Positions 1,666-24,206 of a stretch of 24,206 nucleotides of DNA are shown piece by piece. This stretch comes from Escherichia coli (GTDB taxonomy: Bacteria > Pseudomonadota > Gammaproteobacteria > Enterobacterales > Enterobacteriaceae). Position numbers and translations under genes: made by a program. Under the pieces are notes generated by a model. The model had not been told where the DNA came from. It made no database searches and saw only the letters and a program-made list of their open reading frames with translations. Where the stretch lies: the NCBI RefSeq assembly GCF_003334315.1, contig NZ_QOWR01000065.1; one strand, written 5' to 3'. Within the stretch, counting starts at the first letter, position 1, and each line of letters starts with the position of its first letter.

Positions 1666-2376
1666 ATGGCGACAGGAAAGTCCTGCTCTCGCTGGTTTGC
1701 GCCTCTTGCGGCGTTATTAATGGTAGTTAGCCTGAGTGGGTGTTTTGATAAAGAAGGCGATCAGCGTAAAGCGTTTATCGACTTCCTGCAGAATACAGTG
1801 ATGCGTAGCGGTGAACGTCTACCAACCCTGACTGCCGATCAGAAAAAACAGTTTGGTCCTTTTGTCTCTGATTACGCGATTCTGTATGGTTATTCTCAGC
1901 AGGTGAATCAGGCGATGGATTCCGGTCTGCGCCCGGTTGTAGACAGCGTTAACGCAATTCGCGTACCGCAGGATTACGTTACGCAAAGCGGTCCGCTGCG
2001 TGAAATGAATGGTTCGCTGGGTGTGCTGGCGCAACAACTGCAAAATGCGAAGTTGCAGGCCGATGCTGCGCACTCTGCGCTAAAACAGAGTGATGACCTG
2101 AAACCGGTCTTTGATCAGGCATTCACCAAAGTGGTAACGACGCCAGCTGATGCATTGCAACCGTTGATTCCGGCGGCACAAACTTTCACGCAACAACTGG
2201 TGATGGTTGGAGACTACATTGCCCAACAAGGTACTCAGGTGAGCTTTGTCGCAAATGGCATCCAGTTCCCGACTTCACAGCAGGCAAGTGAATATAACAA
2301 ACTGATTGCGCCATTACCGGCACAGCATCAGGCGTTTAATCAGGCCTGGACTACAGCAGTTACTGCAACCCAATAA
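1666..2376 (+). CDS. yiaF: Lipoprotein YiaF (DUF3053 family), 236 aa
   Basis: AAGGAG at 1653-1658 precedes the ATG at 1666. The N-terminus MATGKSCSRWFAPLAALLMVVSLSGC has a signal peptide and an LSGC lipobox. The ORF-track start at 1546 is an in-frame upstream extension without an RBS. Confidence 0.85.
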   Translation: MATGKSCSRWFAPLAALLMVVSLSGCFDKEGDQRKAFIDFLQNTVMRSGERLPTLTADQKKQFGPFVSDYAILYGYSQQVNQAMDSGLRPVVDSVNAIRVPQDYVTQSGPLREMNGSLGVLAQQLQNAKLQADAAHSALKQSDDLKPVFDQAFTKVVTTPADALQPLIPAAQTFTQQLVMVGDYIAQQGTQVSFVANGIQFPTSQQASEYNKLIAPLPAQHQAFNQAWTTAVTATQ

Positions 2377-2382
2377 AGAGTA

Positions 2383-2407
2383 AAAGCCCGAGCGATTATC
2401 GGGCTTT
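2383..2407. terminator. Bidirectional hairpin terminator between convergent yiaF and ghrB
   Basis: AAAGCCCGA-GCGATTA-TCGGGCTTT is a perfect 9-bp stem with A/T-rich flanks on both strands. A second hairpin GTCGCGG-CTTA-GTCCGCGAC follows at about 2417-2440. Confidence 0.65.
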
Positions 2408-2425
2408 ACTCCACGCAGTCGCGGC

Positions 2426-3400
2426 TTAGTCCGCGACGTGCGGATTCACACAGTTCTTCTCAACCTTTCCTTGTAACGCATCAATCAAATTATCCACGGC
2501 ACAGGCGGCCATGCCATAACGCGTCTCATGGGTGGCAGATCCAATATGCGGTACTGCGACGACGTTGGCCATTGAGAGCAACGGCGAATCTACGGACAGT
2601 GGCTCTTGTTCGAAGACATCCAGCCCGGCAGCGTGAATTTCGCCTTTCTGCAATGCTGCGATCAGTGCATTTTCGTCAACCACCGGGCCACGTCCGGCAT
2701 TAATGAAAATGGCGGAGGATTTCATTTTGGCGAATTGTTCTGCGCCAAACAGATGATGCGTCTCATCAGTTAACGGCAGGATCAGGCAAACGAAATCTGA
2801 CTCTTGTAACAGAGTATCCAAATCGCAGTAGCGGGCGTTGAAGCGTTCTTCTGCTTCTTTATGGTGGCGGCGCGCGTTATAGAGGATGGGCATGTTGAAG
2901 CCAAAGTGCGCACGTTGTGCCAGCGCCATGCCGATCCGTCCCATCCCGACAATGCCCAGTGTTTTATGGTGAACGTCAGTGCCGTACCAGTCCGGGCCTA
3001 TGCTCGCGGTCCATTCGCCTGCTTTTACCCGTTCTGCTACCTCCACAACCCGACGAGCGGTAGACAACACCAGCGCCATCAGCGTATCGGCGACGGTTTC
3101 TGTTAATACGGTTGGCGTGTGCATCAGCAGAATTTTTCGGGCGGTAAGCGCATCGACATCAAAATTGTCATAGCCGACGGAGATCGTTGATGTGGCACGC
3201 AGTTTCGGCATTTTTTCCAGCAATGCGGCATTTACATTCTCGTTTGAACCCAGTAAACCTTCAGCTTCGGCAAAAATTGCTGCATTTTGTTCGACGGTTT
3301 GTGGGCTGAGGTTTGCCACCTGGTGAACGGTGAAATGCTCTTGCAGGCGTTGCAGTAAATCATCAGGTAAGGCTTTGTAGAGGATAACGGACGGCTTCAT
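2426..3400 (-). CDS. ghrB: Glyoxylate/hydroxypyruvate reductase B (2-ketogluconate reductase), D-isomer 2-hydroxyacid dehydrogenase family, 324 aa
   Basis: The NAD-binding motif [16 protein letters not shown] and catalytic region are recognisable. Start set at MKPSVILYK (3400) with GGAGAG upstream; the ORF track begins 4 codons earlier. Confidence 0.9.
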
Positions 3401-3467
3401 GCTTCTCTCCATTCACTGATAAGGCGATCACCTTAGCCTGAAATATGATGAAGGAAAACTGAAGAAT

Positions 3468-3493
3468 GCCAGGTGATTTCTGCATCACCTGGC
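3468..3493 (-). terminator. Terminator hairpin downstream of yiaD
   Basis: Perfect 10-bp inverted repeat GCCAGGTGAT-TTCTGC-ATCACCTGGC, followed on the minus strand by a T-rich tract (ATTCTTCAGTTTTCC). Confidence 0.6.
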
Positions 3494-3503
3494 ATGAAAG
3501 GGA

Positions 3504-4163
3504 TTACAGCGGGCTTAAGGTAATTTCTACACGGCGGTTTTGCGCCTTACCTTCTGCGGTGCTGTTGCTGGCGATTGGGTTAGCCGGGCCAAGGCCCTGA
3601 GTACGGATGCGGCTGGCGTCCACGCCCTGGGTGATCAACGCGCTGGCAACGGAATCCGCACGTTGCTGGGAGAGACGCATGTTCAGGTCGTGACCACCCG
3701 TGCTGTCGGTATAACCAATCACGTTAACCGCCGTTTTCGGATACTCTTTCAGTACCATTGCCACGCCGGTCAGGGTGTTAGCGCCCGCCGGTTTCAGGGT
3801 CGCGCTGCTGCTGTCGAAGGTCACATTGTTCGGCATATTGAGGATAATGTTATCCCCGCTGCGGGTTACGCTAACACCAGTGCCGCGCATTTTGTCGCGC
3901 AGCTTCGCTTCCTGCACATCCATGTAATAACCAACGCCGCCGCCCAGAGCTGCGCCTGCTGCTGCGCCAATCAGCGCGCCTTTACCGCGATCTTTCTTCG
4001 AAGAAGAGAGCGCACCAATACCCGCGCCCACGAGAGAGCCCAGACCTGCGCCGATAGCAGATTTACCTGCTTCGCGTTCGCCGGTGTAAGGGTTAGTTGT
4101 GCAGCCAGATACCGCCAGAGCGCCACTCACTACGGCGGCAATAAGATAAACACGTTTCTTCAT
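3504..4163 (-). CDS. yiaD: OmpA-family peptidoglycan-associated lipoprotein YiaD, 219 aa
   Basis: Signal peptide with lipobox (LAVSGC), a glycine-rich segment, and a C-terminal OmpA-like domain (NMRLSQQRADSV, NRRVEI). Confidence 0.88.
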   Translation of the reverse strand: MKKRVYLIAAVVSGALAVSGCTTNPYTGEREAGKSAIGAGLGSLVGAGIGALSSSKKDRGKGALIGAAAGAALGGGVGYYMDVQEAKLRDKMRGTGVSVTRSGDNIILNMPNNVTFDSSSATLKPAGANTLTGVAMVLKEYPKTAVNVIGYTDSTGGHDLNMRLSQQRADSVASALITQGVDASRIRTQGLGPANPIASNSTAEGKAQNRRVEITLSPL

Positions 4164-4315
4164 TGTTAATCCTTAATAACCTTTTTATTCTTTGCCACGG
4201 GTTCCGTGGCGGGAGATTATGCCGCGTGAACATGAAGATTATTCCTGGGAATACTCGGAAATTTGTAAGTAATATTTAACTGCTCAATACATCTAACCTT
4301 TCAGGAGTCTTCGGT

Positions 4316-6649
4316 TTGGCCAACTCATCCTCACGATATTCCGTTCTGACTGCCGCCCATTGGGGGCCCATGCTGGTTGAAACCGACGGCGAAACCGTGT
4401 TTAGCTCGCGTGGCGCGTTAGCCACAGGAATGGAAAACTCCTTGCAGAGCGCGGTTCGCGACCAGGTTCACAGCAATACGCGGGTACGATTTCCAATGGT
4501 GCGAAAAGGCTTTCTTGCGTCACCGGAAAACCCGCAAGGCATTCGTGGGCAGGATGAATTTGTTCGCGTGAGTTGGGATGAGGCGCTGGATCTTATTCAC
4601 CAACAACATAAACGCATTCGTGAGGCTTATGGTCCGGCATCGATTTTTGCTGGTTCCTACGGCTGGCGTTCAAACGGCGTGCTGCATAAGGCCTCGACAT
4701 TATTACAACGCTATATGGCGCTGGCAGGCGGTTATACCGGGCATCTGGGGGATTATTCGACCGGCGCGGCACAGGCGATCATGCCGTATGTCGTGGGTGG
4801 TAGTGAAGTTTATCAACAGCAGACCAGTTGGCCGCTGGTGCTGGAACATAGCGATGTCGTGGTGCTGTGGAGTGCTAACCCACTCAATACGCTGAAAATT
4901 GCGTGGAATGCATCCGATGAGCAGGGGCTTTCTTACTTTTCTGCACTGCGTGACAGCGGGAAAAAGCTGATCTGCATTGATCCAATGCGATCGGAAACCG
5001 TCGATTTCTTTGGCGATAAAATGGAGTGGGTGGCACCGCACATGGGCACCGATGTTGCGCTGATGCTGGGGATCGCCCATACGCTGGTGGAAAATGGTTG
5101 GCACGACGAAGCGTTTCTGGCGCGTTGCACCACAGGTTATGCCGTCTTCGCTTCTTATTTGCTGGGCGAGAGTGACGGAATAGCGAAAACCGCCGAATGG
5201 GCAGCAGAGATTTGTGGTGTTGGCGCAGCGAAAATCCGCGAGCTGGCGGCTATTTTCCACCAAAATACCACCATGCTGATGGCAGGCTGGGGAATGCAGC
5301 GCCAACAGTTTGGTGAGCAAAAACACTGGATGATCGTCACGCTGGCAGCAATGTTGGGGCAAATCGGCACACCCGGCGGCGGTTTTGGTCTTTCTTACCA
5401 TTTTGCCAATGGTGGTAACCCCACGCGGCGTTCTGCGGTGCTCTCTTCCATGCAGGGCAGCTTGCCGGGTGGCTGCGATGCGGTGGATAAAATCCCTGTT
5501 GCCCGCATTGTTGAAGCACTGGAAAACCCTGGTGGCGCATATCAACACAACGGTATGAACCGACATTTCCCGGATATTCGTTTTATCTGGTGGGCGGGTG
5601 GTGCCAACTTTACTCATCATCAGGATACCAATCGCCTGATCCGTGCCGGGCAAAAACCGGAGCTGGTGGTGATCTCTGAATGCTTCTGGACGGCGGCGGC
5701 AAAACACGCGGATATCGTTCTGCCTGCGACTACCTCTTTTGAGCGTAATGATCTCACCATGACCGGTGATTACAGTAATCAGCATCTGGTGCCGATGAAG
5801 CAAGTGGTGCCGCCACGCTATGAAGCGCGTAATGATTTTGATGTTTTTGCCGAGTTAAGTGAACGCTGGGAGAAGGGCGGTTATGCACGTTTTACGGAAG
5901 GAAAAAGTGAGCTGCAATGGCTGGAAACGTTTTATAACGTTGCCCGACAGCGCGGGGCAAGCCAGCAGGTTGAATTGCCGCCATTTGCTGAGTTCTGGCA
6001 AGCCAACCAGTTAATTGAGATGCCGGAAAACCCGGACAGCGAGCGGTTTATTCGCTTCGCTGATTTTTGCCGCGATCCGCTGGCGCATCCGTTAAAAACC
6101 GCCAGCGGCAAGATTGAAATCTTCTCACAGCGTATTGCCGATTACGGTTACCCGGATTGCCCTGGGCATCCAATGTGGCTGGAGCCGGACGAATGGCAGG
6201 GCAATGCCGAACCAGAACAGTTGCAGGTACTTTCTGCCCATCCGGCGCACCGCCTGCACAGCCAGCTGAATTACAGTTCTCTGCGCGAATTGTACGCGGT
6301 GGCAAATCGTGAGCCTGTCACCATTCATCCTGACGATGCCCAGGAGCGCGGCATACAAGATGGCGATACTGTTCGGTTGTGGAACGCACGCGGGCAAATT
6401 CTTGCCGGAGCGGTCATTAGCGAGGGAATTAAACCTGGCGTGATTTGCATTCACGAAGGGGCATGGCCGGATCTGGATTTAACCGCTGACGGTATTTGTA
6501 AAAACGGCGCAGTGAACGTGCTGACCAAAGATCTCCCCAGCTCGCGGCTGGGGAATGGCTGTGCGGGTAATACGGCGCTGGCATGGCTGGAAAAATACAA
6601 CGGTCCGGAACTGACACTTACAGCGTTTGAACCACCGGCCAGCTCATAA
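4316..6649 (+). CDS. bisC: Biotin sulfoxide reductase, molybdopterin oxidoreductase of the DMSO reductase family, 777 aa
   Basis: Long ORF with molybdopterin oxidoreductase features. The apparent start is TTG at 4316, with CAGGAG at 4302-4307. Length matches K-12 BisC. Confidence 0.9.
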
Positions 6650-12017: not shown

Positions 12018-12351
<334 letters not shown>

Positions 12352-17845: not shown

Positions 17846-18846
17846 GTACGCAAGAGGCCACCCTGCAACAACCGCTGTTGCAGGCTATCGACCTGAAAAA
17901 ACATTATCCGGTGAAGAAAGGCATGTTCGCGCCGGAACGTCTGGTTAAAGCGCTGGATGGCGTTTCGTTTAACCTTGAACGTGGCAAAACGCTGGCAGTA
18001 GTGGGCGAATCTGGCTGCGGTAAATCGACCCTCGGTCGGTTGCTGACGATGATTGAAATGCCCACCGGTGGCGAGCTGTATTACCAGGGGCAGGATCTGC
18101 TTAAGCACGATCCGCAGGCGCAGAAGCTGCGTCGGCAGAAAATCCAGATCGTCTTCCAGAACCCTTACGGTTCGCTGAATCCGCGTAAAAAAGTCGGGCA
18201 AATTCTTGAAGAGCCGCTGCTGATCAACACCAGCTTAAGCAAAGAACAGCGTCGGGAAAAAGCCCTGTCGATGATGGCGAAAGTCGGCCTGAAAACCGAG
18301 CACTATGACCGCTATCCGCATATGTTCTCCGGCGGTCAGCGTCAGCGTATCGCCATCGCCCGTGGTCTGATGCTCGACCCGGATGTGGTGATTGCCGATG
18401 AACCGGTTTCCGCGCTGGATGTTTCAGTGCGCGCGCAGGTGCTGAATCTGATGATGGATTTGCAGCAGGAGTTGGGGCTGTCTTATGTCTTTATCTCCCA
18501 CGACCTGTCGGTGGTGGAGCACATTGCTGATGAAGTGATGGTGATGTACCTGGGCCGCTGCGTGGAGAAGGGAACGAAAGACCAAATCTTCAATAACCCG
18601 CGCCATCCGTACACTCAGGCGCTACTTTCCGCGACGCCGCGCCTGAACCCGGACGATCGCCGCGAGCGCATCAAGCTCAGCGGTGAACTACCAAGCCCAC
18701 TGAATCCACCGCCGGGTTGCGCCTTCAACGCCCGCTGTCGTCGGCGCTTCGGCCCCTGCACCCAGTTGCAGCCGCAGCTAAAAGACTACGGCGGTCAACT
18801 GGTAGCTTGTTTTGCTGTTGATCAGGATGAAAATCCGCAGCGTTAA
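17842..18846 (+). CDS. dppF: Dipeptide ABC transporter ATP-binding protein, 334 aa
   Basis: Walker [10 protein letters not shown], signature FSGGQRQR, Walker [17 protein letters not shown] start/stop overlap with dppD. Confidence 0.95.
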
Positions 18847-18877: not shown

Positions 18878-20147
18878 ACTCAATCAGCTTCAACAGTGGC
18901 GACAAGCATAGCAAAATGCCGTACAGCAGAATCAGCCAGGCTTTAAATCCGCGAAGTTTTTCCAGTTGTGCGACTTTATAGATCAGGAAAAACGGAATGA
19001 GGCACGACACAATACCATATAACGGGCTTCCCAACTGAAAGAACACCAGCACCGATACACGAAACGAAACCCAAATCGTCAACGTAATGACGATAAAAGC
19101 GCAGATCGCCAGAGTCAGCACGCGTGAGTTAATTTTCTTGGTATCAATAATTCGGCTTAACAGATTGAGAATAATGCCTTTAATGGCCTCGTGGAAACCG
19201 AGATAAATGCCAAAGAATGCGGTCAGTACGGCAAAGATATTAAGCACCGTAGAGGTGATATGAATGATATGCCCAGGGATCACCTGCGCGGCCAGCGCCA
19301 GTGCTGAGATATTTTGTTCAAAGGCAGAAACGGCTTCTTCGTGGCTAATTGAGAAGGTAAACGAAAAGGCAAAAAACAGGATCACCGCGATGAGCGTGAT
19401 ATAACTAATTCGGTGGGTACGCAGCGCGAGCCGGGTTGCCAGTACTTTATCCGCTTCCCGTTTACGATAGGCAATATTCATTGGGTTAAGTACCTGAATA
19501 AATACTGCAGAAAAGAAGCAAAATGGAATGGTAAGCAAGACATCGCGGAAAAAGACGGAGGCTTGCGGGAAGGCGGTTATATTGGCGAAATTCCAGTGCG
19601 GGATCATCGCAAAACCGAACACGACAATAATCCCTACTTTGACCACCACCATTGGCCCGGAAATCTTAAACAGTAATCGTTCACCACCAGACGCAATCGC
19701 CACCAGTACGGCGAAAATAGCGACTTTATAAAGTAGAGATTGTGAAAGATCGGCATCGGTTAAACCGAAGGTTTTCAGGTACGAGGCGCTGTCGAAAACC
19801 ACGGAGAGAGAGTAGATAAAAATCCCGTGGATAATCATCAAAAAGTAGATAACCCCGAGGAAAATTCCCCAGTTCTTCCCCAGGTAATGACTGATAATAT
19901 CGGTGTAGTCATTACAGGAATCGCTTTCAGAAAGGGTTTTTAAATAAATGTCCTGCACTACCCAGGTGGCAGGATAAGCAATGATCGCTGCGGTAATAAA
20001 TACCCAAATTCCCTTCAAGCCAATTTGTACTGGCATCAGCACGGTTCCGGCACCAATCGCCATGCCTATGCATAATAAAACCCAGCCGAAGTCGTAGCGT
20101 GTAAACGGCAATTTCTGATTGTGTTTCGATAGTGTGTTGTGCTGCAT
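18876..20147 (-). CDS. yhjV: Putative amino-acid permease YhjV (hydroxy/aromatic amino acid permease family), 423 aa
   Basis: Polytopic membrane protein. Start set at [22 protein letters not shown] (20147), with an AGGA-containing RBS upstream; the ORF track begins 21 codons earlier. Confidence 0.85.
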
Positions 20148-20622: not shown

Positions 20623-20730
20623 ATGACGTTCGCAGAGCTGGGCATGGCCTTCTGGCATGATTTAGCGGCTCCGGTCATTGCTGGCATTCTTGCCAGTATG
20701 ATCGTGAACTGGCTGAATAAGCGGAAGTAA
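20623..20730 (+). CDS. ldrD: Ldr-family type I toxin, 35-aa membrane peptide
   Basis: MTFAELGMAFWHDLAAPVIAGILASMIVNWLNKRK is a full-length Ldr peptide. It is the C-terminal part of the 91-aa ORF 20455-20730 in the track. Confidence 0.85.
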   Translation: MTFAELGMAFWHDLAAPVIAGILASMIVNWLNKRK

Positions 20731-20816: not shown

Positions 20817-22496
20817 TTACTGCGGGTAAGGCACCCAGTCGCCGCCGTTCAGGCGAACGTACGGTTTATCCTGGTATTGAATAACTACTGCATTTGAGTT
20901 CTCGGAGACCGGTGCTGTTTGTGGCAACCCACTGGTGAGTTTTTTCCAGTCAACATTGTCTTCGGTGAAAATCTTGCCATCAAGAACGCGAACCACCAGA
21001 TCGGAGATAGCCAGGAAGCTGCTCGGTTGGTCGATGACAATCGGTGCCCCCTGATGTGGTGCCTTCATGCCGAAGAATTTCACCCCAACGGGGACGTCTG
21101 TGATAGACGGGCTAGGGATATCACGTAGGCCAGATACCTGCATTCTGTCGCCCTTCAGCGCGCCGCCGTGTTCCGGCACCACGACCACCATCACTTTACG
21201 ACCCGATTTCTCCAGTTCAGTAAAGAAGGCGTCCAGTTCATCAAAGAATTTCTGCGCCCGCGCTTTGTAATCCGCTGTTTTGCTGACCCCCGGATAATGG
21301 TTGCCGTCATGCAGTGGAAGCGTGTTGTAGAACGTGGCACTACGGCTGTTTTTATCTTTTTCGGTAACGTCCAGCCAGCGGTTAAGCACGGCGGTATCGT
21401 CATAAACCGGCGAACCATCAAAGCCCAGCAAAATAACCGGCAGATTTGTTTGATCCATCAATTCAGTCTGCATGCCGCCATTTTCGCGAACTTCTTTCAA
21501 AAAACCGCCGAACTGGCCGTTATGTCCCATCATCAGGTGCTGGGTAAAGCCCAGTTTCGAAAGGTTATCAAACAGATAGCAGTCGTTATTTGCCGGTTGA
21601 TACAGATTAGTGTGCGAAGTCTGCCCGCAGCTGGCGCGCAGTAAACGGATCGCCGCCGGGCCACTGTAGGAGGTGGCGGAGTTAAAGTTCTTGAACTCAA
21701 TATCGAAATGCGACCACAGTGGATGCGACATCAACCCGGCGGCTTCTATATCCGACCAGGAAAGCGAACAGATGTTAATCACCAGTAGTTCAAATGGCTG
21801 AGCATCAGCGGGCAGCGAAGACGGGAAGGTCGATTTACGTTTCGCCTCCGCGTTATAGAAATTATTCAGCCAGGCGTTAAGGTTCGCCGTTGTTGGCGGT
21901 GCAGTTTGTGCGGGCATATCACCCACTACCGGTGCGCCACCCGTCGCCGCAACGGTTGCCGCTGCGTTACCACCCGTCGTTGTTACAGTGGTCGTCGGTT
22001 GTCCGGCTGGCCACAAGGAGAAACTTGGTCCCGCCAGGGTAAGTACGTTCAGCCATAGCAGTATGGCAACCACAAAAACAGTAATGCGAATCCATTGTGA
22101 CAGGAATAACCAGGCCACTAATAAAACAAAAATGGCCCCAATCATCTGCCAGTTAATAAAGCGTGTGACAAGGTCGATTAAATAATCGGTACTGAACCCC
22201 GCCACCTGCGAACCCTGGCTCATTATGCTTTCCGGGCCAGGCAACCAGGTGTCATGCCAGAACAAAGCAAAGCCGATCGGCAGGGCAATCCAGTGGCGCA
22301 AGCGATGCAGGCTGTAGCGCGGAATGGGCATCAGCAGAAACGCGGCAAACACCAAATTGAGGAGCGGATGGAAGTTAAGATATCCCGCCCACAACAGGCC
22401 GAACTTAACCAGAAAATAGAAGTTCCAGCCGGAAAGGCCGCGCCAGTATTGCCAGAGGGAAGAAGGCATGGCGGTATTTTGCGTAAATTGAGTCAT
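20817..22496 (-). CDS. bcsG: Cellulose phosphoethanolamine transferase BcsG, 559 aa
   Basis: N-terminal transmembrane region and a C-terminal alkaline-phosphatase-like domain. ATGA overlap with the bcsF stop. Confidence 0.9.
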
Positions 22497-22684
22497 TTTT
22501 TGGTTGCCCTGGCTTTTTCCGTGCGGCGTAACGTCCCGGCCGGTTTAACATAACGAGGTTTAGCAAAGAACAAACGTAAGGTGTCGCGAATGCGTCGCAA
22601 AGAGTGCCGCGCCAGATAGCCCAGCGGGAAAAATATCAGTGCGCAAACGACAATAATTTCAATGATATCGCTGATGGTCATCAT
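22493..22684 (-). CDS. bcsF: Small membrane protein BcsF, 63 aa
   Basis: 63-aa peptide with a single transmembrane segment, bracketed by ATGA overlaps with bcsE and bcsG. Confidence 0.85.
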
Positions 22685-23753
22685 GATGAGCGCTCCACAG
22701 CATCATCTAACAGTCGCATGGGTTCTGGTATTCGTCGCCAGTGGCGACCATCGTGCTCGGCATTGATGACCGGTTTAGAACTTTGCGTTAAAGGCAGCGG
22801 CATGCCCCATTGTTCTGGGGCAAGCAAGCGCATCTGCACCAGCTCGGCACTGATTTGATCATCTTCAAACCAGACCATACGGTTTGAGAAAATGTCGCCA
22901 GTAGGCAATGGGAAAATATGATTCAACGCGGTATCCAGATCGTTAATCCGACAGAATGAGAGAAACAGCACCAGCCGATTACCGCCAATGGTCATGATAT
23001 CGCCGGTACGGTTAGGGCGACACAGCGTCAGGGCTTGTTCAACGCGGATACCCGGTACCGGACGTAGGGCAACCAGAACGCCTTTACCGTGGGCAGGTAA
23101 TAGAGGGTTATTCATCATGTTGTTGACGGCATTACAGAACACATCCCACTTCTGGAAACCACGCAGTTTGAGCGGCTGGGTCATTGACAGCAAGGTAGTG
23201 ATATCTTCCGGCACATAGCGACTAAACTTCTGCCCTTGCACGCTTTCGATCATCGTCAGACAACGGGAGAGTGGCGCATTCCACGGAATAACCATATTTG
23301 CACCGCAGGCCAATAACAAACGTTCATCGGTGGCGCGCAGGCTAGCGGTATTTTCCCGCACGAGGATTTTCATCGCACTACCGCGCTGGCGACGCAGGGT
23401 ATGAATGCTGCGGGCCAGTGGCTCGATTTGCGCATTTTGCTGTAAAGAAAAGACCACCGTCGCCGCCTGAGCGGTACGGGCTTCATTGAACAGGACTTCG
23501 TTATTGTTGAACAGTTGCCAGTGTTCCGATAGCGGCGGCGCACCTTCCAGTACAGCAACATTACTCAGAATGCGTTTTTCGTCGCTGCGTGGTTGGATCT
23601 CCGCCTCTTCGCTTTGAACTAATGTCCAGATACCATTTTGTTGCTGAACGCTAAGCTGCTGACGGGCGCTGACCCCTTTTTCGTTGCACCAGAAGGCAAT
23701 ATCCAGCAAATGTTGGTCACCCTGAAAACGCAAACTGGCAAGACCAAAAAGTG
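22681..23753 (-). pseudogene. bcsE: bcsE truncated by IS1: only the C-terminal 350 codons of the roughly 523-aa protein remain
   Basis: The reading frame continues without a start codon up to the IS1 terminus at 23754. The ORF-track M at 23733 is a TTG inside the native frame (...LFGLASLRFQGDQHLLD...). The 5' part of the gene must lie beyond the IS1 copy, outside the window. Confidence 0.85.
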
Positions 23754-24206
23754 GGTAATGACTCCAACTTATTGATAGTGTTTTATGTTCAGATAATGCC
23801 CGATGACTTTGTCATGCAGCTCCACCGATTTTGAGAACGACAGCGACTTCCGTCCCAGCCGTGCCAGGTGCTGCCTCAGATTCAGGTTATGCCGCTCAAT
23901 TCGCTGCGTATATCGCTTGCTGATTACGTGCAGCTTTCCCTTCAGGCGGGATTCATACAGCGGCCAGCCATCCGTCATCCATATCACCACGTCAAAGGGT
24001 GACAGCAGGCTCATAAGACGCCCCAGCGTCGCCATAGTGCGTTCACCGAATACGTGCGCAACAACCGTCTTCCGGAGCCTGTCATACGCGTAAAACAGCC
24101 AGCGCTGGCGCGATTTAGCCCCGACATAGCCCCACTGTTCGTCCATTTCCGCGCAGACGATGACGTCACTGCCCGGCTGTATGCGCGAGGTTACCGACTG
24201 CGGCCT
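23754..24206 (-). mobile_element. IS1 insertion sequence, partial (window ends inside the element)
   Basis: The terminal inverted repeat GGTAATGACTCCAACTTATTGATAGTGTTTTATGTTCAGATAATGCCCGATGAC starts exactly at 23754, and the adjacent ORF encodes IS1 InsB. About 453 of 768 bp are visible. Confidence 0.95.
23769..24206 (-). CDS. insB: IS1 transposase InsB (5' end beyond window)
   Basis: Translation [48 protein letters not shown]...[15 protein letters not shown] matches IS1 InsB. The frame stays open to the window edge. Confidence 0.9.

Follow-up and report, generated by a model that had tools for sequence, protein, structure and literature searches.

In the 24,206-nucleotide (nt) stretch of Escherichia coli DNA studied here (contig NZ_QOWR01000065.1; hereafter the window, at its full length), the cellulose gene bcsE is a truncated pseudogene and presumably not a functional member of its family, cut short where it meets one end of the insertion sequence IS1. 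In E. coli, IS1 has inserted recurrently into the 9-bp target at this point, CAAAAAGTG. The arrangement is very probably an ordinary insertion-sequence pseudogene at that recurrent site, in which an IS1A-type IS1 joined to nt 500 of bcsE leaves codons 168-523 of the gene devoid of promoter and start codon, followed by intact and translationally coupled bcsF and bcsG. An original prediction, made from the letters of the window, had recognised IS1 and the three genes and regarded the insertion as strain-specific; the latter did not stand up to comparison with related genomes, in which different IS1 variants have hit the site repeatedly and in either orientation. The features concerned are:

23754..24206, minus strand: right end (right inverted repeat, IRR, and insB) of an IS1A-type IS1, from reading of the sequence and the match to NF033558.
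23745..23753, no strand assigned: 9-bp IS1 target CAAAAAGTG (bcsE nt 500-508, in plus-strand reading), duplicated around IS1 in genomes with simple insertions.
22681..23753, minus strand: bcsE', 5'-truncated pseudogene (gene nt 500-1572, codons 168-523 plus stop), matching positions 168-523 of the 523 of profile NF011619.
22493..22684, minus strand: bcsF, intact, 63 amino acids, TIGR03493 score 116.4 against a cut-off of 56.
20817..22496, minus strand: bcsG, intact, 559 amino acids, cellulose phosphoethanolamine transferase (name taken from the K-12 annotation), TIGR03368 score 818.7 against a cut-off of 410.2.

Of the 768-bp IS1, 453 bp and only one end fall within the window; insA and the site of the programmed -1 frameshift would be located past its limit. 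The right inverted repeat GGTAATGACTCCAACTTATTGAT (about 23 bp) was read directly at 23754-23776 and is the same as that found at the right end of full IS1A copies from related genomes. On the minus strand, the translation of 23772-24206, which represents the last 145 codons of insB, matches the IS1 transposase NF033558 (NCBIfam) at profile positions 82-199 of 199 with E=1e-40; the stop codon lies at 23769-23771, 15 nt short of the end of IS1. The transposase is thus read on the minus strand and toward bcsE'FG, and both the terminal repeat starting at 23754 and the co-directional transposase of the original prediction were confirmed by sequence and profile match. In other genomes with the window's junction IS1 measures 768 bp. 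All 453 of the 453 bases in the window are identical to an IS1A copy that sits 32 bp off in the bcsE of QL57EC and is annotated there as an intact frameshifted transposase, and one to four positions differ from the IS1 at the same junction in LR-03, PO06101, Res13 and D72.

The first base of bcsE kept after IS1 is gene nt 500, the second base of codon 167. From there the bcsE frame (22684-23751, minus strand) retains 356 whole codons, with 0 amino-acid differences from K-12 residues 168-523. A break at about residue 173 with 350 codons remaining, as proposed earlier, has to be corrected accordingly to codon 167 and 356 codons; the former figures were counted from the first in-frame start, a TTG at 23733, which is codon 174. 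With a score of 821 the remnant stays below the full-length cut-off of 929 of NF011619, an equivalog model of 523 residues, and so fails the test for a full-length BcsE, while the shorter domain model TIGR03369 is passed (413 against a cut-off of 244.65). The window lacks residues 1-166, which belong to the N-terminal domain, and the part covered is the GIL (REC*-GGDEF*) portion that binds cyclic di-GMP and BcsQ. Both 4-nt ATGA overlaps, of the bcsE stop with the bcsF start and of the bcsF stop with the bcsG start, could be read as predicted. In K-12 MG1655 bcsE is uninterrupted at the junction point, which agrees with the original prediction that K-12 does not have this insertion.

The junction was searched for by BLAST in 5426 complete E. 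coli genomes with a 120-nt probe centred on it, a match being counted where it came as one BLAST piece; the genome counts carry no correction for relatedness by descent. About 22 of the 5426 genomes possess the identical junction, and RefSeq labels bcsE at identical junctions as 'incomplete; missing N-terminus', beside an IS1A transposase. A scan of species-representative genomes gave no match to the exact 40-nt junction of the window, and a look-up of the 350-amino-acid truncated open reading frame led only to contigs of at most 3.5 kb, which are not specific for this junction. It could be argued that the junction is an assembly artefact, with the contig misjoined or truncated at a repeat, since the end of the window falls in a multi-copy element. 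This is scarcely credible, however, as about 22 genomes that different laboratories finished independently all show the identical junction, and more joins of IS1 to the same few dozen bases of bcsE occur in independent short-read and metagenome contigs: seven with the left end of IS1 in opposite orientation 11 nt further 5', one with the exact site in opposite orientation, and one with the right end of IS1 14 nt further 3'.

Recurrence at the target was evident from orientation as well as from the elements themselves. With a probe combining the same bcsE flank and the left end of IS1, an IS1 in opposite orientation was found at the same nucleotide in at least seven genomes. MB10 carries such an opposite-orientation element as a simple insertion with CAAAAAGTG on both sides, and in NT1N31, D72 and S1-CAM-01-A, which have the orientation of the window, the 9-mer on either side is likewise CAAAAAGTG. 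Deletions accompany the opposite orientation in EH10-18-47, where they reach into bcsR, and in WP7-S17-ESBL-04, where nearly the whole of bcsRQABZC is lost. Three classes of IS1 occupy the site: an IS1A-like class with 0-9 differences per 768 bp, window included; a class about 5.5% divergent with a terminal repeat beginning GGTAGTGAC (SCZE5, PK8566, AF56); and the TO6 type, whose left end is different. The end bases therefore differ between copies at the site (GGTAATGAC versus GGTAGTGAC, and at the left end GCAGCATCACC versus GCACCATTACC). Two orientations and three IS1 types with different terminal bases in one and the same 9-bp target imply at least four independent insertions.

The junction was found on eight different 3-kb flanking haplotypes, that of the window being nearest to Res13 and EH10-18-47 with 1 difference in 3 kb. 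The closest relatives across the window do not share its insertion: QL57EC shows 3 mismatches in 23.7 kb against the window and has its own IS1 32 bp further 5' with the duplication GAAAATTGT; ET490 has an intact bcsE, 0 mismatches in the 4.1 kb compared directly and 100.0% over the whole window.

A single ancestral insertion at codon 167, inherited or recombined between strains, with the differences among the IS1 copies brought about by gene conversion, would account for the same junction without any hot spot. E. coli does recombine, the IS1 of NT1N31 looks like a mosaic, its 35 differences all falling within the insB half, and TO6 and PK8566 share an endpoint across different haplotypes. A common origin is nevertheless very improbable: both orientations occur in the same 9-bp target, each with simple insertions bearing the same duplication, the terminal bases differ in a way that is not easily caused by gene conversion with 4-10 nt of outside homology, and neighbouring sites were struck as well, some of them in both orientations.

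Both IS1 flanks of fetched representatives with the junction were mapped to K-12, positions being those in the numbering of the fetched K-12 reference stretch. The bcsE-side junction is constant at K-12 position 18958, and the far side falls at the following K-12 endpoints:

18966: simple 768-bp insertion with the 9-bp duplication CAAAAAGTG (NT1N31, D72, S1-CAM-01-A).
18176: deletion into bcsR (2017.18.04CC).
18121: deletion into bcsR (LR-03).
18120: deletion into bcsR (TO6, PK8566).
18090: deletion into bcsR (AF56).
18052: deletion into bcsR (PO06101, J3).
12288: deletion to the bcsB/bcsZ boundary (SCZE5).
10881: deletion into bcsC (one Res13 pig isolate opened; five further Res13 isolates share the junction).

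The junction between the left end of IS1 and the 5' part of bcsE, searched by probe, was present only in NT1N31, NT1N34, D72 and S1-CAM-01-A, so that at most four of the approximately 22 carriers have a split bcsE. The remaining carriers that were opened have lost the 5' part of bcsE, the divergent bcsE/bcsR promoter region and a variable share of bcsRQABZC. In these derivatives IS1 meets bcsE at a constant point, nt 500, its far end takes at least eight positions from bcsR to bcsC, and a target duplication is lacking. One fixed IS1 end, a variable other endpoint and the missing duplication point to adjacent deletion promoted by the insertion sequence in the related genomes, as adjacent deletions begin exactly at the end of a transposable element and stop at a variable target (PMC9330008; PMC11708052). 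Two steps can be envisaged: IS1 would first insert at CAAAAAGTG and kill bcsE, and IS1-adjacent deletions that keep the bcsE' junction would subsequently take out the 5' part of bcsE, the divergent promoters and bcsR through bcsC.

For the strain of the window itself, an IS1-adjacent deletion beyond the element is probable, a simple insertion that leaves the 5' half of bcsE in place is possible, if less likely, and an inversion or other rearrangement is highly unlikely. The earlier statement that IS1 'splits bcsE' holds in so far as the gene is disrupted, but two halves are not supported, given that the window ends in IS1 and only four of about 22 junction carriers are simple.

It was also conceivable that the insertion is private to this strain and simple, the halves of bcsE being adjacent and the promoter just past the window, with read-through from the transposase expressing bcsE'-bcsF-bcsG. 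Simple insertions with the 9-bp duplication do exist at the exact site in NT1N31, NT1N34, D72 and S1-CAM-01-A; in QL57EC, the closest relative overall, a simple insertion lies 32 bp off and ET490 is intact, which suggests a recent event in the lineage; and insB is co-oriented with bcsE'FG. Against this stand the four simple insertions among about 22 identical-junction genomes, the others opened being deletions, and the recurrence of the insertion in many lineages, so that it is not private. The minus strand furthermore offers no promoter-like site, insB ends inside IS1, neither start nor ribosome-binding sequence precedes codon 174, and IS1 is polar. Even if the remnant were expressed, a BcsE without residues 1-217 fails to be incorporated into the Bcs complex (PMC7439463). 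A private, simple and expressed insertion is therefore considered unlikely.

All of the at least eight distinct deletions from a codon-167 IS1 (K-12 endpoints 18176 to 8223) run toward bcsR-bcsC, whichever the orientation of IS1. Deletions from this element toward bcsF/bcsG were found in none of the mapped genomes.

A second recurrent IS1 site was observed in the intergenic region between bcsR and bcsE, 49-57 bp upstream from the start codon of bcsE (K-12 18402-18410; PCN061 stretch 3617-4384), with the duplication AACCTACCA. About 17 genomes have IS1 there oriented as in the window, and further genomes carry it inverted at that same distance; bcsE is intact in them but cut off from upstream DNA. 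Nested deletions starting from an ancestral IS1 at this intergenic position were considered as a source of the codon-167 alleles and rejected, as the PCN061-type IS1 and the codon-167 insertions each come with a duplication of their own, AACCTACCA in the case of the former.

Regarding expression, a promoter scan of the minus strand from 22300 to 24206 revealed no promoter-like site at or near the junction, and inspection by eye for an outward or hybrid promoter yielded the -35-like TTGGAG of IS1 with no acceptable -10 at 16-18 nt. The first in-frame start of bcsE', the TTG of codon 174, has no evident ribosome-binding sequence. IS1 insertions are strongly polar. With the native promoter displaced or deleted and a polar IS1 in its place, bcsF and bcsG, which are intact and separated from the native bcsE promoter as originally predicted, are expected to be weakly transcribed at best. 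The suggestion that read-through could still express the bcsE fragment and the downstream genes is not borne out, given the lack of a minus-strand promoter-like site, the insB stop 15 nt before the end of IS1 and a TTG at codon 174 with no obvious ribosome-binding sequence.

At the protein level, residues 164-474 of BcsE form the GIL domain, and residues 1-217 are indispensable for membrane targeting of BcsERQ and for incorporation into the Bcs macrocomplex (PMC7439463). The remnant in the window nearly coincides with the GIL module, the lost part being the N-terminal domain; with the domain for membrane targeting and Bcs assembly gone or detached, bcsE is presumably non-functional. The cellulose morphotype of colonies is abolished by non-polar deletion of any one of bcsE, bcsF and bcsG, and the cellulose-negative O104:H4 outbreak strain is explained by a frameshift in bcsE (PMC4287979). 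A dead bcsE together with poorly expressed bcsF and bcsG would thus yield little or no cellulose or phosphoethanolamine-cellulose from the locus, and judged from its sequence the strain is predicted to be cellulose-deficient here. If the far side is one of the common deletions, the bcsRQABZC promoter and bcsR, or more, would be gone as well.

Several points weigh against this account. The window stops inside IS1, and the other IS1 end, any target duplication and whatever is left of the 5' half of bcsE would lie outside it. The genome counts ignore shared ancestry, and recombination may have spread some of the deletion alleles, as the shared endpoint of TO6 and PK8566 on different haplotypes illustrates. 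Recurrence may reflect target preference or selection for cellulose loss. Finally, the ends of IS1 can, in other settings, supply -35 elements and outward promoters, as far as Prentki (1986) is cited to that effect in PMC4287979, and weak transcription out of IS1 may accordingly occur in the window.

The target does not stand alone. In the 560 bp that adjoin the junction on its 5' side, IS1 is present in 57 of the complete genomes in the same orientation and in 68 in the opposite one. Further same-orientation copies lie at K-12 18927, 18926, 18920, 18885, 18875, 18861, 18747, 19070 and 18402, and neighbouring sites 11, 31, 32, 38 and 73 nt (and further) from the target are also occupied, some in both orientations. 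The target itself, C-AAAAAGT-G, places a C and a G around an A/T-rich core and adjoins a stretch of 74% A+T, a composition that fits the target preference of IS1. The consensus of integration host factor (IHF), WATCAANNNNTTR, was not found with at most one mismatch within about 150 bp of the target.

It can be proposed tentatively, with slightly more doubt than trust, that bcsE nt 500-508 and about 600 bp around them, as far as the bcsE/bcsR intergenic region, constitute a sequence- or structure-directed hot spot and the usual point from which the cellulose locus decays, stepwise and in one direction only, in IS1-rich E. coli of commensal and livestock origin. If true, this would mean either selection against expressing BcsRQABZC when BcsE is absent, or a locally strong bias in target choice.

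Additional observations concern IS1 in the same region. The IS1 site at K-12 19070 is common to at least eight genomes. VG1046-3E9 (2173-3859) and the ST540 group have two IS1 copies in bcsE (K-12 19070 and 18927) plus a deletion to bcsC. In one contig (about 540-575) 13 nt, CCGTTCACTTTTT, are deleted across the IS1 target, which may be the trace of an excision. In QL57EC, NT1N31 and PEC209 bcsQ is annotated with an internal stop (4809-5561), K-12-like, in addition to the IS1 in bcsE; in such carriers IS1 would have struck a cellulose locus that was already inactive.

As to wider consequences, the window should be annotated with bcsE as a pseudogene and the strain as predicted cellulose-deficient. 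About 2% of finished E. coli genomes have IS1 in the 560-bp stretch, with identical nucleotides struck repeatedly. Cellulose and phosphoethanolamine-cellulose shape biofilm architecture and temper curli-driven inflammation. A hot spot at which cellulose is first switched off and the operon later eroded could be part of the reason why natural isolates are patchy in their cellulose phenotype, and the IS1-bcsE junction could serve as a cheap marker of cellulose loss by polymerase chain reaction or in silico.

Other features in and around the window are of a different kind. Two identical 108-nt direct repeats at 12076-12183 and 12244-12351, 168 nt apart, follow tRNA-Pro(CGG) (12018-12094), each copy beginning with the last 19 nt of tRNA-Pro and containing its terminator hairpin, with a 60-nt spacer between the copies. 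QL57EC has a single copy, and the match of LR-03 over the window is 168 bp shorter. The duplication could be an integration or excision footprint at the tRNA or a slippage duplication; Tandem Repeats Finder reported nothing in the proK-dppA spacer, whereas the repeat search did reveal it. In MDK6L1 an IS1 in bcsE (3144-3911) is joined to hokA-IS150-glyS, which indicates an IS1-mediated inversion of the approximately 23-kb segment from cspA to bcsE, essentially the span of the window. QL57EC has another IS1 (92-850) about 180 bp left of the window start. Between bcsG and yhjV lies, at the same place as in K-12, the open reading frame of the type I toxin ldrD (20623-20730, plus strand, 35 amino acids, MTFAELGMAFWHDLAAPVIAGILASMIVNWLNKRK), and just past its 5' end presumably the region of the antisense RNA rdlD.

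Compared with known systems, the window is closest to the IS1-interrupted bcsE alleles in RefSeq, the simple insertions of D72, NT1N31 and S1-CAM-01-A and the deletions of LR-03, TO6, PO06101 and Res13, which have the same junction, orientation and bcsE'-bcsF-bcsG remnant. It differs from all of them in its combination of a haplotype near Res13 and EH10-18-47 with the IS1 allele of QL57EC, which matches none. Like the premature bcsQ stop of K-12 and the bcsE frameshift of O104:H4 (PMC4287979), the lesion is a loss of function in an accessory bcs gene expected to abolish cellulose. Those two, however, keep the operon structure, whereas here the N-terminal domain and the link to the promoter are lost to a mobile element, and the IS1 lesion can seed large deletions of bcsRQABZC.

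Classical work on IS1 (gal, lac and pBR322, 1970s-80s) established regional hot spots in AT-rich DNA, 9-bp duplications, polarity and adjacent deletions. The bcsE site agrees with this in its 9-bp duplication with G/C ends around an A/T core and in deletions with one fixed and one variable endpoint; it departs from it in having no IHF-consensus site within about 150 bp and in deletions that run one way whatever the orientation of IS1, a bias that does not follow from the textbook mechanism. The literature searched yielded no description of IS1 in bcsE; the one paper to mention both, PMC4287979, deals with IS1 at pga and with a bcsE frameshift as unconnected topics. The mechanisms at work, IS1 insertion, polarity and adjacent deletion, are already known, and the hot spot together with the one-directional erosion of the operon appears to be an undescribed instance of a known phenomenon.

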